A stretch of DNA of 22,001 nucleotides from a virus. Lineage: Duplodnaviria > Heunggongvirae > Uroviricota > Caudoviricetes. Below, piece after piece: positions 1-22,001 of this stretch. Every line of letters begins with the position of its first letter. Position 1 is the stretch's first letter. Made by a program: the position numbers and the translations under genes. The DNA lies in IMG/VR virus record IMGVR_UViG_3300045988_109008; one strand, given 5' to 3'. The notes beneath the pieces are model-generated. The model saw only the letters and a program-made list of their open reading frames with translations, searched no databases and was not told the DNA's origin.

Positions 1-420
1 TGCCATGATCGTATGTGCCTTTATGATTGGTCTGTAGATAGTGTAGAGCAGAAAACAAAAGGTGGAGTCAGAACAGGATGAAAGTCGGAGGATAAAAAGT
101 CAGTTCAAGTATGGAGGATTCAGTGGTTACCACCAGGAGCTTGCAATGGGGACAGCGAATACTAACGGCTGCCACCGATAAATTTCAAAAAAGAGCATAT
201 GCCTAATATTCAACCAAACAGTGGCATCTTAAATATACTATTCCAAATATATTAAAGCCCCCATGGAGTTACCCTGAAGGGCCTCAATGTCCGTAATTCC
301 TACTTATGTAGGAAATGTTGTACAGAACATTTATTATAATCCTATTCAATTATAATAATCATGCCATTATTATATTTAAACACTAGAGAGTGTCGTTGGT
401 ATTTAATGGGGGAAGGTGAG

Positions 421-738
421 ATGAAAAAGATAGCTGCTATATCATTAATTAGTATTTTTATTATGTCTGGTTGTGCTGTGCATAATGATGAGACAAGTAT
501 CGGTAAATTTGGTCTTGCATATAAAAGTAATATTCAGCGTAAACTCGATAACCAATACTACACCGAAGCCGAAGCTTCTTTAGCCAGGGGCAGAATATCT
601 GGTGCAGAAAATATAGTAAAAAATGATGCAGCCCATTTCTGTGTTACTCAGGGCAAAAAAATGCAGATAGTTGACCTGAAGACAGAAGGTGCAGGATTAC
701 ATGGCGTCGCTCGTCTGACATTCAAATGTGGAGAGTGA
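421..738 (+). CDS. Small putative lipoprotein (about 105 aa) in the host-side flank, function unknown
   Basis: ATG at 421 preceded by GGAAGGTGAG; N-terminus MKKIAAISLISIFIMSGC has a hydrophobic core ending in a lipobox-like IMSGC. The tool ORF starts at 361 but that start has no RBS. AT-rich, outside the att core. Confidence 0.5.
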   Translation: MKKIAAISLISIFIMSGCAVHNDETSIGKFGLAYKSNIQRKLDNQYYTEAEASLARGRISGAENIVKNDAAHFCVTQGKKMQIVDLKTEGAGLHGVARLTFKCGE

Positions 739-800
739 GAATATTTTTTGGTAAGCGTCAAACATGCGCGTTCTGGTTGTGCTTAGCCGGAACCTGTGCG

Positions 801-833
801 AGCACGATGCCGTTACGTGAAAGGCATCGTGCT
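801..833. repeat. Perfect 11-bp inverted repeat (agcacgatgcc ... ggcatcgtgct) with an 11-nt loop, in the host flank about 60 bp upstream of the att core
   Basis: Read directly from the sequence. No U-tract follows, so it is not a canonical intrinsic terminator. Confidence 0.6.
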
Positions 834-896
834 ATGAAGGGAGATTCTATCGATGTGGTCAATGGAAGACGGTGACCAGGGATAGGGCTTATGCAT

Positions 897-923
897 AAAA
901 AATAAGCCCGTGTAAGGGAGATT
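897..923. other. attL: P2-type attachment site core (attL), the left prophage boundary
   Basis: The sequence aaaaaataagcccgtgtaagggagatt matches the 27-bp P2 att core as I recall it. It sits about 80 bp beyond the 3' end of int, as in P2. Confidence 0.7.
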
Positions 924-1002
924 TAGGGTGTCACCAGTAGGGGCTTTCAACGGTACAATGCGGGGTTGAGCGGCATAAATTACCACTGAAAGCCCTTAAA
1001 CG

Positions 1003-6842: not shown

Positions 6843-6933
6843 TGATATTAAGATACTAGGAACTAAAGAGGTATATACCCGCGATAATTGAAGGTGCTTG
6901 ATTTCGAAGATAATCAGGTTCATGTTAACAGCT

Positions 6934-7077
6934 ATGAATATTGAGTTGACCGTAGAACAAAAAATCGCCATCGAAGCATTGCAACGAAAAAGTCGTGATC
7001 TTCATATCCGCGATCGGGTCTGCTGCGTATTGCTTTCTTCTGAAAGCTGGTCAATCACAATGATTGCACCATCCTAA
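6934..7077 (+). pseudogene. Remnant of an IS630/Tc1-family transposase, N-terminal HTH only (47 codons then stop)
   Basis: Translation MNIELTVEQKIAIEALQRKSRDLHIRDRVCCVLLSSESWSITMIAPS resembles the N-terminal HTH of IS630-family transposases. A full transposase would be about 340 aa. Confidence 0.45.
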
Positions 7078-7216
7078 TATATCCATAAAACAACCGCTTT
7101 GTGACACCTGAATGACTGGACTGGTAGTAAAAAAGTAAACTTGAAACTGGTATTGAGTTTTAAGTGCGCGGGTTTTCGGTAGGGAGGTGACACACATTAA
7201 ATTAAAAGTTTCTGGT

Positions 7217-7247
7217 AAGGGGGCGGGGCCCCCTTTATAGGTTTTTT
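7217..7247. terminator. GC-rich hairpin (aaggggg-cgggg-ccccctt) followed by a T-run on the plus strand, between convergent genes
   Basis: 7-bp G/C stem at 7217-7223 and 7229-7235, then tataggtttttt. It lies immediately 3' of the minus-strand 976-aa ORF, so it may terminate transcription from either side. Confidence 0.5.
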
Positions 7248-10177
7248 CAGGAATGAATAACCTTTCTAACCTGGAAGCTATCATTATGAGATGGGATTAT
7301 TTCTCCTTTGAAAATAAGCCCTTCTCTCAAATACTGCCTGCTTTCAGAGGAAAATATTGTTACGTGGAAAAATATATCTACAGGGAGTTTGTCACAACTA
7401 CAGAATCCATATCCTCGTTGTGGAAAGTATCTTTTAATGATGCACTCCCCACTGATTGCTTCAACGTTTGGTGATTCTTTGCTATAAATATGACTAATCA
7501 CCATGCCTATCTCTGTTCTGGAAATGTCACACATCAAAGTGTCGCCATCAACGACGGAATCTATATTATATTGTTTTAATAAATTTTGAGAAATATCGAT
7601 GGGCCCATCAATGTCATTAACAATTAGATATCCAAGGCCACGCTCAACATCATAGCTATCTACAATTGCCCTAGCATGTTTTTTTACGATGCCTAGTTTA
7701 TAAATGTCGCCAAGAGTATTCTCTGGTGGTTCGCTTTCATCATATCTATTTTGTTTAAAGACTAATAGTCGATTGATTAACTCTTTTTGGCATTCATATT
7801 TTTCATGTGTTATCTCATTGCTAATATAAACAGAGTCTTCAGATATTAAATACTCTAGAAATAGATTTCTAATATTGTACATTTTAGAGATGTGATTGCC
7901 TTTGGAAGCATAAGTATCTTTTATTTTATTTGCGATAGAACTGTCGGTGATCGCTGTTGTTAATGCCATTTGATAGAAGTAAACGCTATTACGAGATGCG
8001 AGCTTTAAATGTGCTCTACCTTTATAAGAAATTGCTAATTTCTGATTTGATGAGAGTGTAGTTGATGACATATCATAGGGTTCTATTAATTTTGCCATAA
8101 TTAAGCTCTCTAAAGCTTTATCGACAGCTAGTTCTGTTGCTCCTAAAGCATCGAAATAACTGCTGATAGATTGTACGCTTAAATGTTTATCCTCAATGCT
8201 TTTTCCAGGCACTTGAATGGAGTTAAGTAAAGTAAGGATTCTTAACGCTTGCAATGGTGATTGTCTTACTTGACTATCAACTTGGAATATAGGATATATT
8301 TCTGGGATGTCACCATTTTTATAAACTTCATAATCACCGCGAATTAACGCGTCCATGAAGCGAGTGAAATTTATCGAAGGAAGTTCACCACTAATATAAG
8401 ATTTTATCAAATCCTCTATTTTAATTGCAGGGGATGTGATTATTCTTTTTGATAATAATAATGTGCTGCGTATATTATAGTTGGCAAGCTCACCAAGAGT
8501 TTGTGATGTGTAATCATGATTCACAAAAATATTTTCAATCACTTTAGAAAATTTATTTATATCTTCAATGGAAATTTTAATACCTTTTGATAAAAGATAG
8601 CTTTTCTTTTGTTCATTAGTATCTTTATTGTTAAGTTGTGATGTGATGAAGTTAATTCGCTTTCTGAATACTTCCCGTGGGGACGGAGTTGGTAGAAAAA
8701 ATGATTTCGATTGATAGATGCTAAATATATCTGTCTTGGAGAAAATCCAAGCTGATTTATCTGTTACGGGGAAAATAACAAGGCAGTGTTTAATGTTTTT
8801 TTTAATTGAATTGCTAAACTGGAAGACTTTTGTTTTAAAGTCAAGTGTGAATTCATCAGTGTTATCTACGACTATTATTGGAAGCATTTTTCTATTGCTT
8901 ACAACATTGTGAAGGATGCGTTTTAAATATCCCTCTCGATCATTTTCAACAGCTTCATCTAAATAACGTCCAAATTTTTCCTTGAACTCATCTTTACTTC
9001 TATTGTAAAGAGCTGCGTCCGCTCCTCTTGATTTTCTTTTATATTCATTGTGATAAAGTCCAAGGAGATCATTCCATTCAGGTACGCCGTCCTTGTAAAG
9101 CTGGGTCTCAAGGGTTTTTATTATTTCTTCAGTCATCCAATCTAGAACTGTATCTTCTCGCCCTGTAGCTTCTAAGCAGTTTATTTTAATAAGTAAGCAT
9201 CGTTCTCTAATCGTTTTATTAAGGGTACGACTGAAAAAACGGTCTAAAAAAGTCGACTTCCCAGAGCCAGTTGGTCCAACTATAAAAACGGATTGTTCTG
9301 ACTCTAGATTTATATCAGACTCAATATTTGACATTATTAAATCAGAAAGCTCATCTCCAACTTTATTTTTATTATGGTTTATATTTGACAAGACGCTAGT
9401 TGTTATTTTCTCAAGTGAATAGTCTGCAATTCTACTTTCATATGATTCAACAAAACATTCCATCATCATCTCGTCATCTCCCTCTAATCGAGAGAAGAAA
9501 CTAGAGAATACCCTTTCTAAATCATAAGCCATATCACTTTTTCTTGTTATTTTTATATCAGATCCAATGATTGGGGCTGTTAATTCATTATTTAACAATA
9601 AACGTTTGTTGTGAATATCATCAAATATAGTGTTATACAATCTCTTGTTAAATGCTTCTTTTGATAATAATTCATAGAACACGCTAAATGATTTTTCGAC
9701 TGCCTCGATACTAGGGAATACAATTGCCTCTTTACTCTTGAAGTTTTCACCAGGTATAAATGTTTTGAATATTACCCAACATAACCCATCAGTTAGAATA
9801 GAAAGAGGTATGCCATTTGGCGATGCGTAGCTAAATGCCTGGTTAATTCCTGTCTCGCATTTCTTTAAAGCAGAACCTGATATTTTTAAATGTCTTACAG
9901 TGTTTTTTTGAGCTGTTTCAACTTCTAAAATGCCGATTTTTTTGGCTTCGACAACAAAGGAGGGATGATCATCAGTGGAAAGAATGTAGTCAGAGAATCC
10001 ATTGTCATGAGCAGTTTCACAAGCAATATCAGAGTGCATCCATCCAAGCGTCTCTGTTAATATGCGAGTTATGATTTGAATTTTAGCATCTTCTTCTGAT
10101 TGGATTTTTGTGATGTTATGATTAACATCACTCATAATTTTTAAGAATTTTTTTTCGCTGGAATCTAAACTAGTCAT
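7247..10177 (-). CDS. Large multidomain protein (976 aa): PD-(D/E)xK nuclease fold, P-loop NTPase and C-terminal cold-shock domain; candidate anti-phage defence protein in the P2 tin/old hotspot
   Basis: N-terminal GFSDYILSTDDHPSFVVEAKK (aa 60-80, nt 9938-10000) resembles the HsdR N-terminal nuclease motif. Walker A VGPTGSGKST is at nt 9251-9280, and a Walker B-like IIVVDNTDE is at aa 434-442. The C-terminus RGYGFCSCD...DIFFHVTIF has RNP1/RNP2-like cold-shock motifs (nt about 7250-7450). The gene is AT-rich against a GC-rich phage backbone and sits between A and cos. Confidence 0.8.
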   Translation of the reverse strand: MTSLDSSEKKFLKIMSDVNHNITKIQSEEDAKIQIITRILTETLGWMHSDIACETAHDNGFSDYILSTDDHPSFVVEAKKIGILEVETAQKNTVRHLKISGSALKKCETGINQAFSYASPNGIPLSILTDGLCWVIFKTFIPGENFKSKEAIVFPSIEAVEKSFSVFYELLSKEAFNKRLYNTIFDDIHNKRLLLNNELTAPIIGSDIKITRKSDMAYDLERVFSSFFSRLEGDDEMMMECFVESYESRIADYSLEKITTSVLSNINHNKNKVGDELSDLIMSNIESDINLESEQSVFIVGPTGSGKSTFLDRFFSRTLNKTIRERCLLIKINCLEATGREDTVLDWMTEEIIKTLETQLYKDGVPEWNDLLGLYHNEYKRKSRGADAALYNRSKDEFKEKFGRYLDEAVENDREGYLKRILHNVVSNRKMLPIIVVDNTDEFTLDFKTKVFQFSNSIKKNIKHCLVIFPVTDKSAWIFSKTDIFSIYQSKSFFLPTPSPREVFRKRINFITSQLNNKDTNEQKKSYLLSKGIKISIEDINKFSKVIENIFVNHDYTSQTLGELANYNIRSTLLLSKRIITSPAIKIEDLIKSYISGELPSINFTRFMDALIRGDYEVYKNGDIPEIYPIFQVDSQVRQSPLQALRILTLLNSIQVPGKSIEDKHLSVQSISSYFDALGATELAVDKALESLIMAKLIEPYDMSSTTLSSNQKLAISYKGRAHLKLASRNSVYFYQMALTTAITDSSIANKIKDTYASKGNHISKMYNIRNLFLEYLISEDSVYISNEITHEKYECQKELINRLLVFKQNRYDESEPPENTLGDIYKLGIVKKHARAIVDSYDVERGLGYLIVNDIDGPIDISQNLLKQYNIDSVVDGDTLMCDISRTEIGMVISHIYSKESPNVEAISGECIIKRYFPQRGYGFCSCDKLPVDIFFHVTIFSSESRQYLREGLIFKGEIIPSHNDSFQVRKVIHS

Positions 10178-10232
10178 TTCTTATCATCCAAAGTGATGTA
10201 AGTAAGTTACGGATAAATTCTTATGTATTGAG

Positions 10233-10260
10233 ATTGTAAGGTAATTAGCCATGAGTTCAA
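10233..10260 (-). promoter_or_regulatory. Candidate sigma70 promoter for the 976-aa ORF
   Basis: On the minus strand: TTGAAC (complement of 10255-10260), 16-nt spacer, TACAAT (complement of 10233-10238), about 55 nt upstream of the start codon. Confidence 0.3.
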
Positions 10261-10389
10261 GTAGTTAGTTTGCATATCCTTGCGTGAAAATGCATCTGTC
10301 GTCTGAAATTGGTTTGCTGACACAAACCCAGCCGCCGCTGGGCAGGGTTTGAAGCGCACCTGCATTAAAACCGCCCCGTGAAGCGGGCG

Positions 10390-10408
10390 GGCGAGGCGGG
10401 GAAAGCAC
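10390..10408. other. cos: cos cohesive-end site (19 nt)
   Basis: The sequence ggcgaggcggggaaagcac matches the P2 cohesive-end sequence as I recall it. It lies between the hotspot and Q, as in P2. Confidence 0.6.
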
Positions 10409-10440
10409 TGCGCGCTGGCGGTGGTGCTGATTTTATTTTT

Positions 10441-10480
10441 TCAGCGTCTCAGCGTCTCAGCGTCTCAGCGTCTCAGCGCG
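10441..10480. repeat. Tandem octamer repeat (TCAGCGTC, four perfect copies plus one degenerate) in the cos-proximal region
   Basis: Read directly: tcagcgtc tcagcgtc tcagcgtc tcagcgtc tcagcgcg. Confidence 0.8.
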
Positions 10481-10601
10481 TCGTGACGGCGTTTGGATTG
10501 TGCGCCGGGGCGTTGGTGTGTCTGCGGGGTGTTTTGTGCGGTGGTGAGCGTGTGAGGGCGTGATGACGGGGTGTAAAAAAGCCGCCCGCAGGCGGCGATG
10601 T

Positions 10602-11636
10602 TCAGCCGTTGTCAGTGTCCAGTGAGTAGTTTTTAAAGCGGATGACCTCCTGACCGAGCCAGCCGTTTATCTCGCAGATCCTGTCCTGTAACGGGATAAG
10701 TTCATTGCGGACAAAGACCTTTGCCACTTTCTCAATATCACCCAGCGACCCGACGTTCTCCGGCTTGCCGCCCATCAACTGAAAGGGGATGCGGTGCGCG
10801 TCCAGCAGGTCAGCGGCGCTGGCTTTTTTGATATTAAAAAAATCGTCCTTCGTTGCCACTTCACTGAGCGGGATAATTTTAATGCCGTCAGCTTTCCCCT
10901 GCGGGGCATAGAGAAACAGGTTTTTAAAGTTGTTGCGGCCTTTCGACTTCACCATGTTTTCGCGAAGCATTTCGATATCGTTGCGATCCTGCACGGCATC
11001 AGTGACGTACATGATATATCCGGCATGAGCGCCGTTTTCGTAATACTTGCGGCGGAACAGCGTGGCCGACTCATTCAGCCAGGCAGAGTTAAGGGCGCTG
11101 AGATATTCCGGCAGACCGTACAGCTCCTGATTAATATCCGGCTCCAGCAGGTGAAACACGGAGCCGGGCGCGAAAGGTGTCGGCTCGTTGAAGGACGGCA
11201 CCCACCAGTAAACATCCTCCTCCACGCCACGGCGGGTATATTTTGCCGGTGAGGTTTCCAGTCTGATGACCTTACCGGTGGTGCTGTAACGCTTTTCCAG
11301 AAACGCATTACCGAATACCAGAAAATCCAGCACAAAGCGGCTGAAATCCTGCTGAGAAAGCCACGGGTGTGGGATAAACGTTGAGGCCAGAATATTACGT
11401 TTGACGTAAATCGGTGAGCTGTGATGCACGGCAGCACGCAGGCTTTTTGCCAGACCGGTAAAGCTGACCGGTGGCTCATACCATCTGCCGTTACTGATGC
11501 ACTCGACGTAATCCAGAATGTCACGGCGGTCGAGTACCGGCACCGGCTCACCAAAGGTGAATGCCTCCATTTTCGGGGCGCTGGCGGTCATTTTTTTTGC
11601 CGCAGGTTGCGGTGTTTTCCCTTTTTTCTTGCTCAT
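10602..11636 (-). CDS. Q: Portal protein (344 aa)
   Basis: Length and N-terminus MSKKKGKTPQPAAKK match P2 gpQ; first gene after cos, leftward. Confidence 0.9.
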   Translation of the reverse strand: MSKKKGKTPQPAAKKMTASAPKMEAFTFGEPVPVLDRRDILDYVECISNGRWYEPPVSFTGLAKSLRAAVHHSSPIYVKRNILASTFIPHPWLSQQDFSRFVLDFLVFGNAFLEKRYSTTGKVIRLETSPAKYTRRGVEEDVYWWVPSFNEPTPFAPGSVFHLLEPDINQELYGLPEYLSALNSAWLNESATLFRRKYYENGAHAGYIMYVTDAVQDRNDIEMLRENMVKSKGRNNFKNLFLYAPQGKADGIKIIPLSEVATKDDFFNIKKASAADLLDAHRIPFQLMGGKPENVGSLGDIEKVAKVFVRNELIPLQDRICEINGWLGQEVIRFKNYSLDTDNG

Positions 11637-13408
11637 CAGTAAAACTCCAGAATGGTGGATGTCAGCGGGGTGCTGATACCGGCGGTGAGTGGCTCATTTA
11701 ACAGGGCGTGCATGGTCGCCCAGGCGAGGTCGGCGTGGCTGGCTTCCTCGCTACGGCTGGCCTCATAGGTGGCGCTGCGTCCGCTGCTGGTCATGGTCTT
11801 GCGGATAGCCATAAACGAGCTGGTGATGTCGGTGGCGCTGACGTCATATTCCAGACAGCCACGGCGGATGACGTCTTTTGCCTTGAGCACCATTGCGGTT
11901 TTCATTTCCGGCGTGTAGCGGATATCGCGCGCGGCGGGATAGAACGAGCGCACGAGCTGGAACACGCCGACACCGAGGCCGGTGGCATCAATTCCGATGT
12001 ATTCGACGTTGTATTTTTCGGTGAGTTTGCGGATGGATTCCGCCTGAGTGGCAAAGTCCATGCCTTTCCACTGGTGACGCTCAAGTATTCTGAATTTACC
12101 TCCGGCCACCACCGGCGGTGCCAGCACCACGCATCCGGCGCTGTCGCCACGGTGTGACGGGTCGTAACCAATCCATACCGGGCGGGAGCCGAACGGATTG
12201 GCGGCAAACGGCGCATAGTCTTCCCATTCTTCCAGCGTGTCGACCATGCAGCGTTGCAGCTCCTCGAACGGGAACACCGACGCCTTGTCGTCAACAAATT
12301 CACACATGAACAGGTTTTTAAAATCGTCGGCGCTGTTTTCACGTTTGAGCTGCTCAATGTCGAACAGCGTGCAGCCACCTTTCAGGGCGTCCTCAATGGT
12401 GACAATCTGCCGCCACTGGCCGTCCGCACAGAGAAGCCCCCCGGCAAGGGCGTTATGACTGACGTCGATTTCCACGCGTTCGGCGGCGCTGGCGCGTCCC
12501 CGGTTGAACAGTTCACCCGACCAGAATGGGTAGGCGTCGTGCGCCAGCGTGGACGGGGTGGAGAAATAGGTCGAGCGCAGGTGGCTCTGTGAGGCCATAC
12601 CTGATGCCACCTTTCGCAGTACCTGAAAATTCGGGATCCAGAAAATCTCGTCGACGTACAGGTCGCCGTTATGGCTCTGTGCGGTGTTGGAGTTGGTGCC
12701 GAGAAAAATCAGTTTTGCGCCGTTATTGCCCAGGACAATCGGGTCACCGGTCAGGTCAACGTCAACCAGCCGGGCAAAGGCGATGATGTATTCGCGGAAC
12801 ACATACGCCTGCGTTTTACTGGCCGACAGAAAAATCTGGTTATGACCGGTTTTCAGGGCGCGCAGCAGCGCCTCGCGGGAAAAATAAAACGTCGCGCCAA
12901 TCTGGCGGGATTTCAGGATATCGCGGATGCGGTGCTCAAGCCCGGCGCGATACCAGTGCAACTGATAGTCGAAAGACTGCTCAAAGAAAATCTGCTCCAG
13001 CTTTTCGATGGCCTCGTCACTGAAAAAATTCTTTTTCGGTTTGCGCCGCCCGCCTTTGTTGCGGTTAGCGACGTTCGGATTAAGGTCTGCCTCGTTGCCG
13101 GTCTGGCTGTAGCGGTTGACCCGTGCCAGTCGTTCAATCTGGCGTCCCAGCAGGTCAATTTCCTTGAAGTCACTGCCGGTTTTCTGCGGTTTGATGATGA
13201 GCTGGGTCAGCCGCGCTTCCAGGCTCATTTCGACACGGCTGATGGGGGCAACGCTGTCCCAGCCGTCGCGCTGTTTCCAGCTCTGCACCGTCGGGCGTTT
13301 CATCTGCAACATGGCGGCAATCTGCGGCACGGAAAACCCCTGCCAGTACAGCAGCGCCGCCTGACGACGCGGGTCGTGTAAAAGAGTGGTGTCTGTGGTG
13401 ATGGTCAT
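11636..13408 (-). CDS. P: Terminase large (ATPase) subunit (590 aa)
   Basis: Start assigned to MTITTDTTLLHDPRRQ with GAGG 5 nt upstream (tool ORF starts 10 codons earlier). Overlaps the Q start by 1 nt. Confidence 0.9.
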   Translation of the reverse strand: MTITTDTTLLHDPRRQAALLYWQGFSVPQIAAMLQMKRPTVQSWKQRDGWDSVAPISRVEMSLEARLTQLIIKPQKTGSDFKEIDLLGRQIERLARVNRYSQTGNEADLNPNVANRNKGGRRKPKKNFFSDEAIEKLEQIFFEQSFDYQLHWYRAGLEHRIRDILKSRQIGATFYFSREALLRALKTGHNQIFLSASKTQAYVFREYIIAFARLVDVDLTGDPIVLGNNGAKLIFLGTNSNTAQSHNGDLYVDEIFWIPNFQVLRKVASGMASQSHLRSTYFSTPSTLAHDAYPFWSGELFNRGRASAAERVEIDVSHNALAGGLLCADGQWRQIVTIEDALKGGCTLFDIEQLKRENSADDFKNLFMCEFVDDKASVFPFEELQRCMVDTLEEWEDYAPFAANPFGSRPVWIGYDPSHRGDSAGCVVLAPPVVAGGKFRILERHQWKGMDFATQAESIRKLTEKYNVEYIGIDATGLGVGVFQLVRSFYPAARDIRYTPEMKTAMVLKAKDVIRRGCLEYDVSATDITSSFMAIRKTMTSSGRSATYEASRSEEASHADLAWATMHALLNEPLTAGISTPLTSTILEFY

Positions 13409-13581
13409 GAATACCTCGCCGTGATGAATACACGGCAAGGCTACTGAGTCGCGCCCCGCGATTCGCTAAGGTGCTGTTGTGTCAGTGATAAGCCATCCGG
13501 GACTGATGGCGGAGGATGCGCATCGTCGGGAAACTGATGCCGACATGTGACTCCTCTAATCACTATTCAGGACTCCTGACA
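13409..13581. promoter_or_regulatory. Divergent late promoter region (PP/PO-equivalent)
   Basis: Intergenic between divergent P and O, as in P2, where Ogr-dependent late promoters lie. I did not confidently locate a TGT-N12-ACA element by eye. Confidence 0.4.
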
Positions 13582-14436
13582 ATGGCAAAAAAAGTCTCAA
13601 AATTCTTTCGTATCGGCGTTGAGGGTGACACCTGTGACGGGCGTGTCATCAGTGCGCAGGATATTCAGGAAATGGCCGAAACCTTTGACCCGCGAGTCTA
13701 TGGTTGCCGCATTAACCTGGAACATCTGCGCGGCATCCTGCCTGACGGTATTTTTAAGCGTTATGGCGATGTGGCCGAACTGAAGGCCGAAAAGATTGAC
13801 GATGATTCGGCGCTGAAAGGCAAATGGGCGCTGTTTGCGAAAATCACCCCGACCGATGACCTTATCGCGATGAACAAGGCCGCGCAGAAGGTCTACACCT
13901 CAATGGAAATTCAGCCGAACTTTGCCAATACCGGCAAATGTTATCTGGTGGGGCTGGCCGTCACCGATGACCCGGCAAGCCTCGGCACGGAATACCTGGA
14001 ATTCTGCCGCACGGCAAAACACAACCCCCTGAACCGCTTCAAATTAAGCCCTGAAAACCTGATTTCAGTGGCAACGCCTGTTGAGCTGGAATTTGAAGAC
14101 CTGCCTGAAACCGTGTTCACCGCCCTGACCGAAAAGGTGAAATCCATTTTTGGCCGCAAACAGGCCAGCGATGACGCCCGTCTGAATGATGTGCATGAAG
14201 CGGTGACCGCTGTTGCTGAACATGTGCAGGAAAAACTGAGCGCCACTGAGCAGCGCCTCGCTGAGATGGAAACCGCCTTTTCCGCACTTAAGCAGGATGT
14301 GACTGACAGGGCGGATGAAACCAGCCAGGCATTCACCCGCCTGAAAAACAGTCTCGACCACACCGAAAGTCTGACCCAGCAGCGCCGCAGCAAGGCCACT
14401 GGCGGTAGCGGTGATGCCCTGCTGACGAACTGCTGA
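13582..14436 (+). CDS. O: Capsid scaffolding protein (284 aa)
   Basis: Start at MAKKVSKFFRIGVEG with AGGA upstream; the tool ORF start at 13516 is too far upstream. Confidence 0.88.
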   Translation: MAKKVSKFFRIGVEGDTCDGRVISAQDIQEMAETFDPRVYGCRINLEHLRGILPDGIFKRYGDVAELKAEKIDDDSALKGKWALFAKITPTDDLIAMNKAAQKVYTSMEIQPNFANTGKCYLVGLAVTDDPASLGTEYLEFCRTAKHNPLNRFKLSPENLISVATPVELEFEDLPETVFTALTEKVKSIFGRKQASDDARLNDVHEAVTAVAEHVQEKLSATEQRLAEMETAFSALKQDVTDRADETSQAFTRLKNSLDHTESLTQQRRSKATGGSGDALLTNC

Positions 14437-14494
14437 CCGGCGTCAGTCAGTCCGGGAAAACCTTCACGATTAACCCTTAATTTCAGGAAAAACT

Positions 14495-15568
14495 ATGCGC
14501 CAGGAAACCCGCTTTAAATTTAATGCTTACCTGTCCCGTGTTGCCGAACTGAACGGCATCGACGCCGGTGATGTGTCGAAAAAATTCACCGTTGAACCGT
14601 CGGTCACCCAGACCCTGATGAACACCATGCAGGAGTCCTCTGACTTTCTGACCCGCATCAACATTGTGCCGGTCAGCGAAATGAAAGGGGAAAAAATTGG
14701 CATCGGTGTCACCGGCTCCATCGCCAGCACCACCGACACCGCCGGTGGCACCGAGCGTCAGCCGAAGGACTTCTCGAAGCTGGCGTCTAACAAGTACGAA
14801 TGCGACCAGATTAACTTCGATTTTTATATCCGCTACAAAACGCTGGACCTGTGGGCGCGTTATCAGGATTTCCAGCTCCGTATCCGTAACGCCATTATCA
14901 AACGCCAGTCCCTTGATTTCATCATGGCCGGTTTTAACGGCGTGAAGCGTGCCGAAACCTCTGACCGCAGCAGTAATCCGATGCTACAGGATGTGGCGGT
15001 CGGCTGGCTGCAGAAATACCGCAATGAAGCCCCGGCGCGCGTGATGAGCAAGGTCACTGACGAGGAAGGGCACACCACCTCTGAGGTTATCCGCGTGGGT
15101 AAGGGCGGTGATTATGCCAGCCTTGACGCACTGGTGATGGATGCGACCAACAACCTGATTGAGCCGTGGTATCAGGAAGACCCTGACCTTGTGGTGATTG
15201 TGGGACGTCAGCTACTGGCGGACAAGTATTTTCCCATCGTCAACAAGGAGCAGGACAACAGCGAAATGCTGGCCGCTGACGTCATCATCAGCCAGAAACG
15301 CATCGGCAACCTGCCAGCGGTACGCGTCCCGTACTTCCCGGCGGATGCGATGCTCATCACGAAGCTGGAAAACTTGTCCATCTACTACATGGATGACAGC
15401 CATCGCCGCGTGATTGAGGAAAACCCGAAACTCGACCGCGTGGAGAACTACGAGTCAATGAACATTGATTACGTGGTGGAGGACTACGCCGCCGGTTGTC
15501 TGGTGGAAAAAATTAAGGTCGGTGATTTCTCCACACAGGCCAGGGCAACCGCAGAGCCGGGAGCGTAA
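14495..15568 (+). CDS. N: Major capsid protein (357 aa)
   Basis: Size and position match P2 gpN. Confidence 0.9.
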   Translation: MRQETRFKFNAYLSRVAELNGIDAGDVSKKFTVEPSVTQTLMNTMQESSDFLTRINIVPVSEMKGEKIGIGVTGSIASTTDTAGGTERQPKDFSKLASNKYECDQINFDFYIRYKTLDLWARYQDFQLRIRNAIIKRQSLDFIMAGFNGVKRAETSDRSSNPMLQDVAVGWLQKYRNEAPARVMSKVTDEEGHTTSEVIRVGKGGDYASLDALVMDATNNLIEPWYQEDPDLVVIVGRQLLADKYFPIVNKEQDNSEMLAADVIISQKRIGNLPAVRVPYFPADAMLITKLENLSIYYMDDSHRRVIEENPKLDRVENYESMNIDYVVEDYAAGCLVEKIKVGDFSTQARATAEPGA

Positions 15569-15571
15569 CCG

Positions 15572-16315
15572 ATGACGAGTCCCGCACAGCGCCACATGAT
15601 GCGGGTCTCGGCAGCGATGACCGCGCAGCGGGAAGCCGCCCCGCTGCGACATGCAACTGTCTATGAGCAGATGCTGGTTAAGCTCGCCGCAGACCAGCGC
15701 ACACTGAAAGCGATTTATTCAAAAGAGCTGAAGGCCGCAAAAAAACGCGAACTGCTGCCGTTCTGGTTGCCGTGGGTGAATGGCGTGCTGGAGCAGGGCA
15801 AAGGTGCACAGGATGACATTCTGATGACGGTCATGCTGTGGCGTCTGGATACCGGCGATATTGCCGGTGCGCTGGAGATTGCCCGTTATGCCCTGAAGTA
15901 CGGTCTGACCATGCCGGGTAAACACCGCCGCACCCCGCCGTACATGTTCACCGAGGAGGTGGCGCTCGCGGCCATGCGCGCTCACGCTGCCGGTGAGTCT
16001 GTGGATACCCGCCTGCTGACGGAGACCCTTGAACTGACCGCCACGGCTGACATGCCTGATGAAGTGCGCGCAAAGCTGCACAAAATCACCGGTCTGTTTC
16101 TGCGTGACGGTGGTGATGCCGCCGGTGCGCTGGCTCACCTGCAACGTGCGACACAGCTCGACTGTCAGGCAGGCGTCAAAAAAGAGATTGAACGACTGGA
16201 GCGGGAGCTGAAACCGAAGCCGGAGCCGCAGCCCAAAGCGGCCACCCGCGCCCCGCGTAAGACCCGGAGCGTGACACCGGCAAAACGTGGACGCCCGAAA
16301 AAGAAAGCCAGTTAA
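15572..16315 (+). CDS. M: Terminase small (endonuclease) subunit (247 aa)
   Basis: Size and position match P2 gpM; basic C-terminal tail. Confidence 0.88.
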   Translation: MTSPAQRHMMRVSAAMTAQREAAPLRHATVYEQMLVKLAADQRTLKAIYSKELKAAKKRELLPFWLPWVNGVLEQGKGAQDDILMTVMLWRLDTGDIAGALEIARYALKYGLTMPGKHRRTPPYMFTEEVALAAMRAHAAGESVDTRLLTETLELTATADMPDEVRAKLHKITGLFLRDGGDAAGALAHLQRATQLDCQAGVKKEIERLERELKPKPEPQPKAATRAPRKTRSVTPAKRGRPKKKAS

Positions 16316-16414
16316 CAACCGAATGCGCCCCGCGCCAGGGCGGCACGCCGGTCAGTGAGGGTGAATCACCTGACACTGCACCGGCGTCCACCGCCCGACT
16401 TTTCAGAGGTAGTC

Positions 16415-16924
16415 ATGATGACGCTGATTATTCCGCGAAAGGAGGCTCCCGTGTCCGGTGAGGGTACGGTGGTCATCCCGCAACCGGCAGGCGACGAGCC
16501 GGTGATTAAAAACACGTTCTTTTTTCCCGATATCGACCCGAAGCGCGTCCGGGAACGTATGCGCCTTGAGCAGACCGTCGCCCCCGCCCGTCTGCGTGAG
16601 GCTATCAAGTCAGGCATGGCGGAGACGAATGCGGAGCTGTACGAGTACCGCGAACAGAAAATTGCCGCCGGTTTTACGCGTCTGGCGGACGTCCCGGCGG
16701 ACGACATCGACGGTGAAAGCATCAAAGTTTTTTACTACGAGCGCGCCGTGTGTGCGATGGCGACCGCGTCGCTTTATGAGCGTTACCGCGGCGTGGATGC
16801 CAGTGCGAAAGGTGACAAGAAGGCTGACAGCATTGACAGCACCATTGATGAACTGTGGCGGGATATGCGCTGGGCGGTGGCGCGTATCCAGGACAAGCCG
16901 CGCTGCATCGTGAGTCAAATCTGA
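16415..16924 (+). CDS. L: Head completion protein (169 aa)
   Basis: Start at MMTLIIPRKEAP with GAGGT upstream; the tool ORF is extended at the N-terminus. Confidence 0.88.
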   Translation: MMTLIIPRKEAPVSGEGTVVIPQPAGDEPVIKNTFFFPDIDPKRVRERMRLEQTVAPARLREAIKSGMAETNAELYEYREQKIAAGFTRLADVPADDIDGESIKVFYYERAVCAMATASLYERYRGVDASAKGDKKADSIDSTIDELWRDMRWAVARIQDKPRCIVSQI

Positions 16925-17127
16925 TGAAGACCTTTGCGCTACAGGGCGACACGCTCGACGCCATTTGTGTCCGGTATTACGGGCGCACTGAGGGCGTGGT
17001 TGAGACCGTGCTCGCCGCAAATCCGGGACTGGCTGAACTGGGTGTGGTGCTGCCACACGGCACCGCCGTCGAACTGCCCGACGTTCAGACCGCGCCCGTG
17101 GCTGAAACTGTCAATCTGTGGGAGTAA
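16924..17127 (+). CDS. X: Tail protein X (67 aa)
   Basis: Start MKTFALQGDTLDAICVRYYG, overlapping the L stop. Confidence 0.85.
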   Translation: MKTFALQGDTLDAICVRYYGRTEGVVETVLAANPGLAELGVVLPHGTAVELPDVQTAPVAETVNLWE

Positions 17128-17130
17128 CGC

Positions 17131-17412
17131 ATGACAGCAGAAGAAAAAAGCGTCCTGTCGCTTTTCATGATTGGGGTGCTGATTGTTGTCGGCAAGGTGC
17201 TTGCCGGTGGTGAACCCATCACCCCGCGTCTGTTTATCGGGCGAATGTTGCTCGGTGGTTTTGTCTCGATGGTTGCCGGTGTTGTTCTGGTGCAGTTTCC
17301 TGACCTGTCACTGCCTGCGGTGTGCGGCATTGGCTCCATGCTGGGTATCGCCGGTTATCAGGTGATTGAGATTGCCATTCAGCGCCGCTTTAAGGGCAGG
17401 GGGAAACCGTAA
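17131..17412 (+). CDS. Y: Holin (93 aa)
   Basis: Small protein with hydrophobic segments and a charged C-terminus, immediately upstream of the endolysin. Confidence 0.88.
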   Translation: MTAEEKSVLSLFMIGVLIVVGKVLAGGEPITPRLFIGRMLLGGFVSMVAGVVLVQFPDLSLPAVCGIGSMLGIAGYQVIEIAIQRRFKGRGKP

Positions 17413-17909
17413 TGCCGGTAATTAACACACATCAGAATATCGCCGCCTTTCTCGACATGCTGGCCGTGTCCGAAGGGACGGCGAATCATCCGCTGACGAA
17501 AAACCGGGGCTATGACGTGATAGTCACCGGACTGGACGGGAAGCCGGAAATTTTCACCGACTACAGTGACCACCCGTTCGCGCATGGCCGACCGGCGAAG
17601 GTGTTTAACCGTCGCGGTGAAAAGTCCACGGCATCCGGTCGCTATCAGCAGCTTTACCTGTTCTGGCCGCACTACCGCAAACAGCTTGCCCTGCCGGATT
17701 TCAGTCCGTTGTCACAGGACAGGCTCGCCATTCAGTTGATCCGCGAACGCGGTGCACTGGATGACATCCGGGCGGGACGCATTGAGCGCGCTATTTCACG
17801 CTGTCGCAATATCTGGGCGTCCCTGCCGGGAGCCGGTTACGGTCAGCGTGAGCATTCACTGGAAAAACTGGTCACCGTCTGGCGTACCGCTGGCGGCGTA
17901 CCGGCTTAA
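17412..17909 (+). CDS. K: Endolysin (165 aa)
   Basis: Position after the holin with a 1-nt start/stop overlap; size matches P2 gpK. Confidence 0.9.
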   Translation: MPVINTHQNIAAFLDMLAVSEGTANHPLTKNRGYDVIVTGLDGKPEIFTDYSDHPFAHGRPAKVFNRRGEKSTASGRYQQLYLFWPHYRKQLALPDFSPLSQDRLAIQLIRERGALDDIRAGRIERAISRCRNIWASLPGAGYGQREHSLEKLVTVWRTAGGVPA

Positions 17910-17923
17910 ACGGAGTAAACACC

Positions 17924-18349
17924 ATGAAGAAATTATCCCTTTCACTGATGCTGAACGTGTCGCTGGCGCTGATGCTGGCACTGTCCCTGATTTACCCGCA
18001 GAGCGTGGCCGTCAGTTTTGTCGCCGCCTGGGCGATTCTGGCGACGGTTATCTGTGTGGTTGCCGGTGGTGTCGGCGTGTATGCCACTGAGTATGTACTG
18101 GAACGCTACGGGCGGGAGCTGCCGCCGGAATCGCTGGCCGTGAAGATTGTCACGGCGCTGTTTTTGCAGCCGGTGCCGTGGTGCAGACGGGCGGCGGCTC
18201 TGGTGGTGATGGTGGCGACGTTTATCTCGCTGGTTGCCGCCGGGTGGATTTTTACTGCGCTGATTTACCTCGTGGTGTCGGTGTTCTTCCGGCTGATACG
18301 TACGGCCTGCCGTCAGTGTTTTGAGGGGCGGGAACCATGTCAAGGCTGA
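17924..18349 (+). CDS. lysA: Lysis-timing membrane protein LysA (141 aa)
   Basis: Multiple hydrophobic helices; position as in P2. Confidence 0.85.
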   Translation: MKKLSLSLMLNVSLALMLALSLIYPQSVAVSFVAAWAILATVICVVAGGVGVYATEYVLERYGRELPPESLAVKIVTALFLQPVPWCRRAAALVVMVATFISLVAAGWIFTALIYLVVSVFFRLIRTACRQCFEGREPCQG

Positions 18350-18762
18350 TGATTGTGCTGGTTGTGTTGTTATCACTGGCGGTGGCTGGTCTGTTTCTGG
18401 TGAAACACAAAAATGCCAGCCTGCGCGCCTCGCTGGACAGGGCGAACAACGTCGCCAGCGGGCAGCAGACGACCATCACCATGCTGAAAAATCAGCTTCA
18501 TGTTGCCCTCACCAGAGCAGACAAAAACGAGCTGGCGCAGGTGGTACTGCGTCAGGAACTGGAGAACGCCGCGAAGCGTGAAGCACAGCGCGAGAAAACC
18601 ATCACGAGGTTACTTAATGAAAACGAAGATTTTCGCCGCTGGTACGGCGCTGACCTGCCTGATGCTGTGCGCCGGTTGCACCAGCGCCCCGCCTGCACCG
18701 ACGCCAGTGATTGTCCACAACGCCTGCCCGAAAGTGAGTCTTTGCCCGATGCCGGGCAGTGA
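18337..18762 (+). CDS. lysB: Rz-like inner-membrane spanin LysB (141 aa)
   Basis: N-terminal transmembrane helix and coiled-coil-like body; position as in P2. Confidence 0.85.
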   Translation: MSRLMIVLVVLLSLAVAGLFLVKHKNASLRASLDRANNVASGQQTTITMLKNQLHVALTRADKNELAQVVLRQELENAAKREAQREKTITRLLNENEDFRRWYGADLPDAVRRLHQRPACTDASDCPQRLPESESLPDAGQ

Positions 18763-18907
18763 CCCGGAGACGAACGGTGATTTAAGTGCCGATATCCGGC
18801 AGCTTGAGAACGCGCTGGCGCGCTGTGCCAGCCAGGTAAAAATGATTAAACACTGTCAGGACGAAAACGATGCTCAAACCCGACAGCCTGCGCAGGGCGC
18901 TGACTGA
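18617..18907 (+). CDS. lysC: Rz1-like outer-membrane lipoprotein spanin LysC (96 aa), starting inside lysB in the +1 frame
   Basis: MKTKIFAAGTALTCLMLCAGC has a lipobox (LCAGC) and a Pro-rich mature region. It overlaps the 3' end of lysB and the 5' end of R. Confidence 0.8.
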   Translation: MKTKIFAAGTALTCLMLCAGCTSAPPAPTPVIVHNACPKVSLCPMPGSDPETNGDLSADIRQLENALARCASQVKMIKHCQDENDAQTRQPAQGAD

Positions 18908-19337
18908 TGCCGTCACGGTGCTGAAAACTAACCCCGATATGCTGCGGATATTCGTGGATCACGGGAGTATTGCCTCCACGCTGGCGGCGTCGTTGTCATT
19001 CGAAAAGCGTTACACGCTCAATGTCATTGTGACCGACTTTACCGGTGATTTTGACCTGCTCATCGTGCCGGTGCTGGCGTGGCTGCGGGTAAATCAGCCC
19101 GACATCATGACCACCGACGCAGGTCAGAAAAAGGGCTTCACGTTTTATGCAGACATCAACAATGACAGCAGCTTTGATATCAGCATCAGCCTGATGCTGA
19201 CCGAGCGAACGCTGGTCAGTGAGGTGGACGGCGCACTGCATGTGAAGAATATCCCGGAACCTCCGCCGCCGGAGCCGGTCACCCGCCCGGTGGAGCTTTA
19301 TATCAATGGCGAACTGGTGAGCAAGTGGGATGAATGA
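18870..19337 (+). CDS. R: Tail completion protein R (155 aa)
   Basis: Size and position match P2 gpR. Confidence 0.88.
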   Translation: MLKPDSLRRALTDAVTVLKTNPDMLRIFVDHGSIASTLAASLSFEKRYTLNVIVTDFTGDFDLLIVPVLAWLRVNQPDIMTTDAGQKKGFTFYADINNDSSFDISISLMLTERTLVSEVDGALHVKNIPEPPPPEPVTRPVELYINGELVSKWDE

Positions 19338-19782
19338 GTTTAAGCGTTTTGAAGACCGGCTGACCGGACTTATTGAATCGCTGTCACCGTCAGGGCGTCG
19401 GCGACTGAGCGCCGAACTGGCGAAACGTCTGCGGCAGAGTCAGCAGCGCCGGGTGATGGCACAGAAAGCCCCGGACGGCACACCCTACGCACCACGCCAG
19501 CAGCAGAGCGCCAGAAAAAAGACCGGTCGCGTTAAGCGAAAAATGTTTGCGAAACTTATCACCAGTCGTTTTTTGCATATCCGCGCCAGCCCTGAACAGG
19601 CATCAATGGAGTTTTACGGCGGGAAGTCACCGAAAATCGCCAGTGTGCATCAGTTTGGTCTGTCGGAAGAAAACCGGAAAGACGGTAAGAAAATTGATTA
19701 TCCGGCGCGTCCTCTGCTCGGCTTTACCGGTGAGGATGTGCAGATGATTGAAGAGATTATCCTGGCTCACCTCGACCGTTAG
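19330..19782 (+). CDS. S: Tail completion protein S (150 aa)
   Basis: Size and position match P2 gpS. Confidence 0.88.
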   Translation: MNEFKRFEDRLTGLIESLSPSGRRRLSAELAKRLRQSQQRRVMAQKAPDGTPYAPRQQQSARKKTGRVKRKMFAKLITSRFLHIRASPEQASMEFYGGKSPKIASVHQFGLSEENRKDGKKIDYPARPLLGFTGEDVQMIEEIILAHLDR

Positions 19783-19813
19783 TTGTGCCATTCCCGACAC
19801 CTCATCGTTACAT

Positions 19814-19835
19814 TGCCGCCGGTATGACCCGGCGG
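19814..19835 (+). promoter_or_regulatory. Perfect 8-bp GC inverted repeat (gccgccgg-tatgac-ccggcggc) in the S-V intergenic region, upstream of V
   Basis: Read directly. It lies in the expected PV late promoter or leader region. A TGT (19784-19786) with ACA 10 nt downstream is nearby, which resembles but does not exactly match the TGT-N12-ACA Ogr site. Confidence 0.4.
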
Positions 19836-19848
19836 CATCCTTCCCGTT

Positions 19849-20484
19849 ATGAACACTCTCGCAAATATCCAGGAACTCGCGCGCGCACTGCGCAACATGA
19901 TTCGCACCGGCCTTGTCGTCGAAACCAACCTTAAAGCCGGTCGCTGCCGTGTGCAGACCGGTGGCATGTGCACCGACTGGCTTCAGTGGCTGACCTGTCG
20001 TGCCGGTCGTTCGCGCACATGGTGGGCACCTTCCGTGGGGGAGCAGGTGCTGATTCTGGCCGTGGGCGGTGAACTTGACACGGCGTTTGTTCTGCCGGGG
20101 ATTTATTCCGGCGATAACCCCGCGCCGTCTGCGTCGGCGGATGCCCTGCATATCCGTTTCCCTGACGGGGCGGTGATTGAGTATGAACCCGAAACCAGTG
20201 CACTCACGGTAAGCGGAATTAAAACGGCCAGCGTTACGGCTTCTGATTCTGTTACTGCCACGGTGCCGGTGGTCATGGTGAAAGCATCAACCCGCGTCAC
20301 CCTGGACACACCGGAGGTGGTCTGCACCAACAGGCTGATTACCGGCACGCTGGAAGTGCAGAAGGGCGGGACGATGCGCGGCAACATTGAACACACCGGC
20401 GGTGAACTCTCATCAAACGGTAAGGTACTGCATACCCATAAACACCCCGGCGACAGTGGCGGCACAACAGGGGGACCTCTATGA
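19849..20484 (+). CDS. V: Baseplate spike protein (211 aa)
   Basis: Size and position match P2 gpV. Confidence 0.88.
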   Translation: MNTLANIQELARALRNMIRTGLVVETNLKAGRCRVQTGGMCTDWLQWLTCRAGRSRTWWAPSVGEQVLILAVGGELDTAFVLPGIYSGDNPAPSASADALHIRFPDGAVIEYEPETSALTVSGIKTASVTASDSVTATVPVVMVKASTRVTLDTPEVVCTNRLITGTLEVQKGGTMRGNIEHTGGELSSNGKVLHTHKHPGDSGGTTGGPL

Positions 20485-20828
20485 CAGCGCGTTATCTCGG
20501 AATGAATCGCAGTGATGGCCTGACTGTCACTGACCTTGAGCATATCAGCCAGAGTATCGGCGATATCCTGCGCACACCGGTCGGCTCACGGGTGATGCGT
20601 CGTGATTACGGCTCGTTGCTGGCGTCAATGATTGACCAGCCGCAGACCCCGGCGCTTGAGTTGCAGATTAAAGTCGCCTGTTACATGGCAGTGCTGAAAT
20701 GGGAACCCCGCGTCACCCTGTCATCCGTCACCACGGCGCGCAGTTTTGACGGGCGAATGACGGTCACGTTAACCGGCCAGCACAACGACACCGGCCAGCC
20801 ACTTTCGTTAACCATCCCTGTGAGTTGA
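20481..20828 (+). CDS. W: Baseplate wedge protein (115 aa), gp25-like
   Basis: Size and position match P2 gpW. Confidence 0.88.
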   Translation: MTARYLGMNRSDGLTVTDLEHISQSIGDILRTPVGSRVMRRDYGSLLASMIDQPQTPALELQIKVACYMAVLKWEPRVTLSSVTTARSFDGRMTVTLTGQHNDTGQPLSLTIPVS

Positions 20829-20832
20829 AACC

Positions 20833-21741
20833 ATGCCGATTATCGACCTGAACCAGCTACCCGCACCGGATGTGGTCGAGGAGCTGGACTTTGAAACCAT
20901 TCTTGCCGAACGCAAGGCGACACTGATTTCCCTTTACCCGGAAGACCAGCAGGAGGCGGTCGCCCGTACCCTGACACTGGAATCTGAGCCTCTCGTCAAA
21001 CTGCTGGAGGAAAATGCTTATCGTGAGCTTATCTGGCGTCAGCGTGTGAATGAGGCTGCACGGGCGGTGATGCTGGCCTGTGCAGCCGATAATGACCTTG
21101 ATGTGATTGGTGCCAATTACAACACCACACGCCTGATTATCACCCCGGCAGATGATTCAACCATCCCGCCGACACCGGCAGTAATGGAATCTGACACCGA
21201 TTATCGGCTGCGTATTCAGCAGGCGTTTGAGGGCTTAAGCGTCGCCGGGTCGGTGGGAGCCTATCAGTATCATGGTCGCAGTGCCGACGGGCGTGTCGCC
21301 GATATTTCTGTCACCAGTCCGTCTCCGGCCTGCGTCACCATCTCTGTGCTGTCACGTGAAAATAACGGTGTCGCATCCGAAGACCTGCTGGCCGTGGTGC
21401 GTAACGCCCTTAATGGCGAGGACGTCAGACCGGTGGCCGACCGCGTGACCGTGCAGTCTGCCGCCATTGTTGAATACCAGATAAACGCCACGCTTTACCT
21501 TTACCCTGGTCCCGAAAGCGAACCCATCCGCGCGGCCGCCGTGAAAAAACTGGAAGCATACATCACGGCACAGCACCGGCTGGGGCGCGACATCCGTCTG
21601 TCTGCCATTTATGCCGCCTTGCATGTTGAAGGTGTGCAGCGTGTCGAACTGGCTGCACCGCTGGCCGACATCGTGCTCAACAATACGCAGGCGTCTTTCT
21701 GTACCGAATACCGCGTCGTGACCGGAGGCTCGGATGAGTGA
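20833..21741 (+). CDS. J: Baseplate protein J (302 aa)
   Basis: Size and position match P2 gpJ. Confidence 0.88.
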   Translation: MPIIDLNQLPAPDVVEELDFETILAERKATLISLYPEDQQEAVARTLTLESEPLVKLLEENAYRELIWRQRVNEAARAVMLACAADNDLDVIGANYNTTRLIITPADDSTIPPTPAVMESDTDYRLRIQQAFEGLSVAGSVGAYQYHGRSADGRVADISVTSPSPACVTISVLSRENNGVASEDLLAVVRNALNGEDVRPVADRVTVQSAAIVEYQINATLYLYPGPESEPIRAAAVKKLEAYITAQHRLGRDIRLSAIYAALHVEGVQRVELAAPLADIVLNNTQASFCTEYRVVTGGSDE

Positions 21742-21961: not shown

Positions 21962-22001
21962 AGGAGATCGGTGAGTAACATCGATGGAGATCGGTTCGTG
22001 T

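Follow-up and report, generated by a model that had tools for sequence, protein, structure and literature searches.

Which function is served by the 976-amino-acid (aa) gene that lies, on the opposite strand, between gpA and the cos region of a P2-like prophage? The gene occupies positions 7247-10177 of a 22,001-nucleotide stretch of viral DNA (IMG/VR record IMGVR_UViG_3300045988_109008; "the window" below means this whole stretch), which is a P2-like Escherichia coli prophage inserted beside yegR/yegS. The reading that we favour, with a probability of about 0.5, is that it is a stand-alone, horizontally acquired anti-phage gene of the gpA-cos hotspot. It would encode an NLR-like protein in which binding of single-stranded nucleic acid by cold-shock domains (CSDs) leads to NTP-dependent oligomerisation and then to nuclease activation. 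An anti-phage role as such is very probable, with good support from the genomic context.

A locus 99.9% identical to this one is annotated in RefSeq in the order integrase, C repressor, cox, early genes, gpA, an opposite-strand 'AAA family ATPase' (WP_032286573.1), portal Q, terminase P and late genes; the order in phage P2 is A-orf91-tin(-)-old(-)-cosR. Because gpA ends at 6842 and P2 homology is back only at 10361-10408, in the cos block, the cassette between them lies in the tin/old slot, where a preliminary description of the window had placed the gene, and it takes the place of P2 orf91-tin-old. This gpA-gpQ hotspot was defined by Rousset et al. 2022 (PMC9122126), and two independent experimental studies report the gpA-cos locus to be rich in defence systems (PMC9122126; PMC9519451). 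GC content is 0.30-0.35 over 7501-10000, against 0.53-0.63 in the structural genes rightward (10501-22000) and 0.43-0.57 in the early region leftward. The features of the locus are as follows.

6843-10360, no strand: variable cassette from the end of gpA to the cos block; P2 layout, P2 homology only from 10361, low GC.
7217-7235, no strand: GC-rich hairpin, 12 nt past the stop codon of the 976-aa gene; consensus match only.
7247-10177, minus strand: 976-aa open reading frame (ORF), ATG start, stop codon included; RefSeq 'AAA family ATPase', WP_032286573.1.
10233-10260, minus strand: candidate sigma-70 promoter TTGAAC-16-TACAAT, about 56 nt upstream of the ATG, from a consensus scan.
10361-10408, no strand: cos-proximal block, identical to the P2 right end, with the cosR equivalent at 10390-10408; right edge of the hotspot.
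10602-11636: portal gene Q.

We examined the protein in a family alignment of 34 homologues (44-58% identical to the E. coli protein), each of which was also scanned against Pfam, and in an AlphaFold2 model built from that alignment (mean predicted local distance difference test score, pLDDT, 77.9; predicted template-modelling score 0.69). The domains, all on the minus strand, run from the N-terminus as follows.

9608-10105, minus strand: PD-(D/E)xK nuclease, HsdR-N/BpuSI-N-like, residues ~25-190, from the family Pfam scan, the motif and a fold search.
9941-9991, minus strand: catalytic core D63 ... E77-A-K79; E54 and Q113 lie outside this span.
9308-9607, minus strand: helical linker, residues 191-290, pLDDT 45-70 and below 50 at 246-271.
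8693-9307, minus strand: P-loop NTPase core of the ORC/Cdc6-STAND type, residues 291-495, from the Pfam family scan and a fold search.
9254-9277, minus strand: Walker A GPTGSGKS, residues 301-308; G301, P302, G304, G306 and K307 invariant.
8852-8878, minus strand: Walker B IIVVDNTDE (hhhhDxxDE), residues 434-442; D438, N439, D441 and E442 invariant.
8258-8692, minus strand: lid/helical domain, residues 496-640, helical in both models.
8027-8257, minus strand: winged-helix domain, residues 641-717.
7703-8026, minus strand: C-terminal helical bundle, residues 718-825, fast-evolving (mean pairwise identity 0.38 versus 0.61 in the NTPase), from the models.
7475-7696, minus strand: cold-shock domain 1 (CSD1), residues 828-901, from the family profile match; RNP motifs degenerate here.
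7250-7456, minus strand: cold-shock domain 2 (CSD2), residues 908-976; RNP1 RGYGF and RNP2 IFFH canonical.

The N-terminal domain carries an intact nuclease motif. E54, D63, E77, K79 and Q113 are invariant in the 34 sequences and constitute the HsdR-N/Mrr-type PD-(D/E)xK signature. Pfam HSDR_N was matched by 21 of the 34 members (best 9.6e-8), and the E. coli protein taken alone gave no nuclease match.

The central NTPase is evident from the single sequence, in which AAA_22 scored above the Pfam cut-off (2.9e-7). Across the alignment, AAA_22 and AAA_16 were matched by all 34 members, ATPase_2 by 28, nSTAND_NTPase5 by 18 and NACHT by nine. The DxxDE form of the Walker B at 438-442 resembles the Walker B motifs of NACHT/STAND proteins. 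NCBIfam gave sub-threshold P-loop matches only (best orc1/cdc6, 4.4e-5, against a cut-off of 181 bits) and has no family for the protein. A Foldseek search of the model against the PDB placed ORC4, Cdc6 and Orc1 on top (7.7e-7 onward), with BrxC of BREX at 2.9e-5. The best structural relatives of the NTPase are ORC/Cdc6, TnsC, BrxC, RdrA, CED-4, NLRs and Avs5, all of them nucleotide-dependent assembly switches and not translocases. Pfam revealed no translocase or helicase motor, the ResIII match being local to the P-loop (E 0.085). Sequence and profile searches against the PDB returned Csp matches only and no solved structure of a relative. The lid opens with an LPTPxP motif at 495-500, in which L495, P496, T497, P498 and P500 are invariant.

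Beyond the winged helix the protein changes fastest. Mean pairwise identity is 0.36-0.38 in the C-terminal third, 0.52 in the nuclease and 0.61 in the NTPase, a pattern that would fit what the input modules of immune receptors tend to do. A repeat sensor domain (TPR or the like) was looked for in Pfam, where no repeat family matched; the models show the winged helix, the helical bundle and two CSDs. Pfam likewise gave no HEPN or other dedicated RNase domain.

The C-terminus ends in two tandem cold-shock domains, since the family profile matches Csp-type structures in two separate stretches: against PDB sequences, YB-1, CspA and CspB were found at ~2e-8 over positions 826-900, and, separately, a Csp at 1.7e-5 over 913-976. 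Pfam CSD covers residues 915-953 of the E. coli protein at 1.5e-3, below the cut-off; CSD was matched by 32 of the 34 members (best 9e-18) and OB_RNB, an RNase II-type OB fold, by 14. In CSD2, R921, G924 and F925 are invariant and Y923, F936, F937 and H938 nearly so, despite the fast evolution of this third. CSD1 of the E. coli protein keeps its fold in the model without the motifs, and may be a decayed or repurposed domain.

Much of this anatomy had been read in the preliminary description, which gave the ORF as it stands here (7247-10177, minus strand, ATG). Its nuclease, NTPase and cold-shock folds were upheld by the family profiles and the AlphaFold model. Its nuclease residues D63 and E77/K79 proved invariant, and so did its Walker A/Walker B-like pair, placed about 130 residues apart, with the Walker B 131 residues after K307. 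The RNP1/RNP2 motifs that it saw are real and belong to CSD2, but they had been assigned to a single cold-shock domain where there are two in tandem. It overlooked the lid, winged helix and helical bundle between the NTPase and the CSDs, as well as the relatives that lack CSDs. Among the checks that it proposed, the Pfam/PADLOC profile searches and structure prediction upheld the three folds and assigned no known system.

The family comprises more than 400 homologues, mostly of 965-1005 aa and 45-60% identical. When 1.84 billion representatives were searched exhaustively with the profile, 563 proteins scored E <= 1e-30, among them about a dozen full-length clusters of ~965-985 aa with CSDs and many clusters of 800-875 aa that match only positions 1 to ~810. 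Examples of the CSD-less form in IMG/VR contigs are proteins of 823 and 844 aa. Furthermore, PHROG 14719 (function not assigned) fits residues 1-832 over profile positions 1-833 of 833 (E = 0, 1326 bits) and stops before the cold-shock domains, thus describing the CSD-less core. The cold-shock pair is therefore an addition to a broader nuclease-NTPase family, of ~800-875 aa, that is without it.

Within E. coli the gene is rare: it is present in seven of 5426 complete genomes, always in the chromosome. A pattern-based scan found the family in 168 of ~185,000 GTDB species genomes. There, Alpha- and Gammaproteobacteria and Bacteroidota carry the CSD form, and Nostoc, Anabaena, Calothrix, Microcoleus, Chlorobiales, Acidobacteriota, Planctomycetota, Bdellovibrionales and Burkholderiales the CSD-less form. 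In filamentous cyanobacteria (loci L076-L093: Nostoc, Anabaena, Calothrix, Microcoleus), CSD-less relatives of ~805 aa are common; one Nostoc metagenome-assembled genome has two loci, L089 and L090, the ORF call in the latter spanning residues 390-804 only. A tblastn search of the sequenced phage genomes in INPHARED gave no match, which leaves prophages and IMG/VR contigs as its only known phage sources. The contexts seen elsewhere are listed here.

Serratia: within the transfer genes of an integrative and conjugative element (ICE).
Citrobacter: a small integrase/AlpA/Rep islet.
Methylomonas: adjoining SIR2 and two integrases.
Yersinia: integrase/excisionase end of a prophage, beside RelB/ParE.
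Plesiomonas: a lambdoid prophage, after a lambda-P-like replication gene.
Acinetobacter, Phaeobacter and Pseudoalteromonas: plasmids.
Vibrio cholerae, Rhizobium and Aquimarina: alone amid housekeeping genes.

The gene is thus horizontally acquired cargo of mobile elements, rare and patchy in its distribution. It is also a one-gene system, because neighbour clustering (all-against-all, ORFs within 4 kb, ~95 non-duplicate loci) revealed no partner gene conserved beyond close relatives for the CSD clade (~40 independent loci); together with its low GC content this agrees with the earlier description of a single AT-rich gene. At 33 independent CSD-clade loci we also took two flanking ORFs from either side, 113 in all, and searched them for defence genes with PADLOC (E <= 1e-5). 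The matches were DarT with DarG, IetA with IetS, a type I REase, Hhe, PDC-S06, PDC-M54A, PDC-S37, PDC-M72A and mad3; Pfam found integrases, a resolvase and otherwise unrelated genes among these neighbours.

Two further loci differ in arrangement. In the IMG/VR contig L013 (1408-2314 and 2703-5630), a full-length homologue of 47% identity adjoins a P2-type virion morphogenesis gene (Phage_tail_S), a position in a P2-like genome other than the gpA-cos hotspot. In a distant IMG/VR subgroup (L018 and L020-L023; ~22% identity, ~845 aa, CSD-less), the gene is in every case immediately preceded by a conserved 166-aa ORF (in L018, ORF and relative lie at 9404-9904 and 9956-12490), which suggests a two-gene version of the system.

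How might such a protein act? We favour an NLR-like mechanism because the relatives of the NTPase are assembly switches and because the domains follow the order effector, switch, variable C-terminus. The PD-(D/E)xK domain, a putative DNA nuclease, would be the effector, the NTPase with its lid and winged helix the switch, and the helical bundle with the CSDs the input. In an uninfected lysogen the protein would be at rest, as a monomer or low-order form whose nuclease is kept inactive. Upon infection, the cold-shock pair, in the E. coli protein mainly CSD2, would bind single-stranded nucleic acid, either phage single-stranded DNA from replication or recombination intermediates or abundant phage RNA. 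Binding would free the NTPase to bind NTP and oligomerise, bringing nuclease domains together so that DNA is cleaved by proximity. As a result, the phage genome would be destroyed, or the cell would be killed before progeny release.

A more specific version of this proposal is that what the receptor detects during infection is single-stranded nucleic acid, bound directly by the cold-shock tandem, and not a phage protein. It would then correspond, in prokaryotes, to the innate immune receptors that sense nucleic acids, and would carry its own nuclease as executioner; the ancestral form, with another trigger, would survive in the CSD-less relatives. We regard this version as rather doubtful.

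Several observations weigh against the favoured reading. In the E. coli protein the RNP residues of CSD1 are gone: L848, Y850, D861 and S863 stand in place of the family's F/Y, F, F/Y and H; L848 and D861 occur in this protein alone among the 34 sequences. Since many relatives of ~800-875 aa are without any cold-shock domain, the CSDs cannot be the universal sensor of the family; sensing may lie with the winged helix and helical bundle, and the cold-shock pair may then serve for targeting or tuning. In characterised Avs proteins it is repeat domains, absent from the E. coli protein, that recognise phage proteins. Fold searches do not separate STAND from ORC/Cdc6-type AAA+ proteins, ORC/Cdc6 ranking on top with NACHT and nSTAND5 weak. 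PADLOC v2 (2023), read at E up to 1, gave P-loop-local matches only (mad8, mad3, RtcR, HEC-01A) plus CSD_V. A literature text search, including the DefensePredictor supplements, found no paper describing the family. The defence-island-like neighbourhood, counted without a matched control, is suggestive, and the promoter is a consensus match only.

Chief among the other explanations is a direct, non-suicidal, restriction-like ATP-dependent nuclease, as in OLD, Gabija and type IV systems. Here the winged helix and CSDs would load the enzyme onto single-stranded or structurally unusual phage DNA and the NTPase would license cleavage of that molecule only, without a switch from oligomerisation to death. 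The nuclease domain does belong to the HsdR-N/BpuSI restriction type; old, whose place the gene takes, likewise encodes an ATPase-nuclease acting on DNA; and the best structural matches, ORC/Cdc6, TnsC and BrxC, are DNA-bound ATP switches. Direct cutting of phage DNA by nuclease-NTPase pairs is a common design among defence systems (10.1101/2025.07.10.664194). However, a restriction enzyme of this kind would sit poorly with the lack of a translocase or helicase motor in the Pfam matches and with the lack of a methylase or other self/non-self partner, and the order effector, NTPase, variable C-terminus is that of NLR-like receptors, among which Rousset et al. filed the protein. We consider this explanation possible though unlikely.

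Alternatively, the CSD pair could recognise phage or host RNA, the effector being either the PD-(D/E)xK domain or an RNA-binding arrest of translation, as proposed for CSD-bearing CoCoNuT. To our knowledge, nucleases of the HsdR-N/BpuSI type are DNases in every characterised case, which speaks against such a system even if cold-shock domains most often bind RNA and the RNP motifs of CSD2 are invariant or nearly so. CoCoNuT, which combines CSDs, an NTPase and PD-(D/E)xK, is predicted to target RNA (PMC11090510), and the OB_RNB matches point the same way; yet the CSD-less relatives keep both nuclease and NTPase, and Pfam offered no dedicated RNase domain. An RNA-directed system therefore seems to us improbable.

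A role outside defence, as a selfish or addiction nuclease or as a P2 accessory gene (for instance one that controls replication or packaging close to cos, or that interferes with plasmids or P4-type satellites), is a long shot: the hotspot does carry partition systems and a cytolethal distending toxin (PMC9122126), about two thirds of the sampled neighbourhoods have no recognisable defence gene, and the gene stands alone among housekeeping genes in V. cholerae, Rhizobium and Aquimarina, but its occurrence on unrelated mobile elements (other prophage types, an ICE, plasmids, chromosomal islets) excludes a P2-specific function, no antitoxin-like partner is conserved, and the architecture matches immune receptors.

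The preliminary description had not recognised the architecture as any named system. No PADLOC model fits it, and two CSD-less relatives likewise gave nothing beyond P-loop-local matches in PADLOC v2; the exact protein is nevertheless already tabulated. Rousset et al. 2022 list WP_032286573 in Table S5A as the single-gene locus 'AAA_22', and in Table S5B the same sequence is system 106, 'BpuSI_N/NB-ARC/S1-like', an 'NLR-like protein' with 30 occurrences (PMC9122126). That sequence does not figure in their Table S2, which covers validated systems and others that were additionally tested (PMC9122126). The protein was thus recognised and classified in 2022 with essentially the same domain reading, which reduces its novelty to that of an unnamed variant of the NLR-like/nuclease-NTPase kind. 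The main text of a 2026 STAND census contains no cold-shock, OB or HsdR terms. Parallel designs exist in the same hotspot, namely system 23, 'HSDR_N_2/KAP_NTPase/NB-ARC', with 140 occurrences, and a split cassette 'S1/HSDR_N + KAP_NTPase' (PMC9122126), indicating that nuclease, P-loop switch and OB fold recur there both fused and unfused.

If active, the gene would add a compact (<3 kb) single-protein defence to the repertoire of the E. coli P2 hotspot, with an NLR-like switch paired with a nucleic-acid-binding input and not with a protein-binding repeat. The point of interest is that the cold-shock tandem sits where characterised relatives carry protein-sensing repeats; nucleic-acid sensing by bacterial STAND/NLR-type receptors would become directly testable in E. 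coli, and proteins with two CSDs, with a degenerate first CSD and with no CSD form a natural comparison series. If inactive or otherwise employed, it would be one more hotspot cargo gene, catalogued in 2022.

The signals around the gene are less clear than its coding sequence. The preliminary description had given it its own candidate promoter and terminator. Consensus matches for both are present, but a scan found 18 promoter-like sites in the region where 13.6 are expected by chance, so the candidate promoter is weakly supported, and the region upstream of the ORF has no homology to the P2 old promoter region. For the hairpin at 7217-7235 the T-run lies on the plus strand and a clean U-tract is not present on the minus strand; we therefore rejected it as a terminator dedicated to the 976-aa gene. 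Because the T-run follows on the plus strand, termination of the rightward gpA transcript is favoured: going by the sequence, the hairpin may chiefly serve that end or may work in both directions.

A 404-bp spacer (6843-7246) separates gpA from the 3' end of the gene and includes the hairpin; in E. coli this spacer is found only in the same seven genomes that carry the gene. The spacer holds a 47-aa ORF (6934-7077, plus strand) beginning MNIELTVEQKIAIEALQRK, which two RefSeq records may cover as 'hypothetical protein'. An impression that this ORF is the remnant of an IS630-type transposase (helix-turn-helix) was dropped, Pfam giving no support. At the other side, a perfect 8-bp tandem repeat (TCAGCGTC, 4.8 copies) occupies 10441-10478, between the cos block and a terminator-like hairpin downstream of Q, and is not part of the alignment with the P2 right end. 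The integrase end of the prophage (window 1-1000; locus L001, 1-3000) abuts yegR/yegS/gatD, marking the chromosomal insertion site.

Finally, we compared the protein with known systems. It shares fold and motif with the N-terminal nuclease of HsdR and BpuSI, and some database records name homologues 'type I restriction endonuclease'; unlike HsdR, it has no superfamily 2 helicase/translocase motor and no HsdM/HsdS or methylase neighbour. CoCoNuT and McrBC type IV systems also combine cold-shock OB folds, an NTPase and PD-(D/E)xK in a predicted defence role (PMC11090510), but they are multi-gene systems with McrB GTPase, McrC and coiled coils, whereas here a single gene carries an ORC/STAND-type NTPase; Pfam, PADLOC and NCBIfam gave no McrB or McrC match. 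With P2 Old and Tin the gene shares its slot and orientation, leftward from beside cos, and Old is likewise a single gene of the lysogenic-conversion type with ATPase and nuclease. Old, however, joins an ABC-type ATPase to TOPRIM, and here an AAA+/STAND-type NTPase is joined to PD-(D/E)xK; neither Pfam nor PADLOC gave a TOPRIM/OLD match, and the two are not homologous in sequence or promoter.

In Avs9 and SAMD9/SAMD9L, too, one antiviral protein unites an effector that cleaves nucleic acid with a STAND-like NTPase and an OB fold at the C-terminus (PMC12680541). Theirs are an AlbA_2 nuclease, SIR2 and TPR, in contrast to the HsdR-N-like nuclease and cold-shock tandem found here without SIR2 or TPR, and Pfam, PADLOC and PDB searches detected no sequence relationship. 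Compared with Avs and other bacterial NLR-like STAND proteins, the 976-aa protein has a helical bundle and two cold-shock OB folds instead of a TPR or other repeat sensor, is much shorter than a typical Avs, matches no Avs/bNACHT model in PADLOC, and has an NTPase whose matches to ORC/Cdc6 are no weaker than those to STAND proteins. What it has in common with them is that it is cargo of a prophage or satellite hotspot with no partner gene, and that a single protein leads from a PD-(D/E)xK nuclease to a P-loop switch NTPase with lid and winged helix and on to a variable C-terminus, here laid out as nuclease (25-190), NTPase (291-495), lid and winged helix (to 717) and variable C-terminus (718-976).

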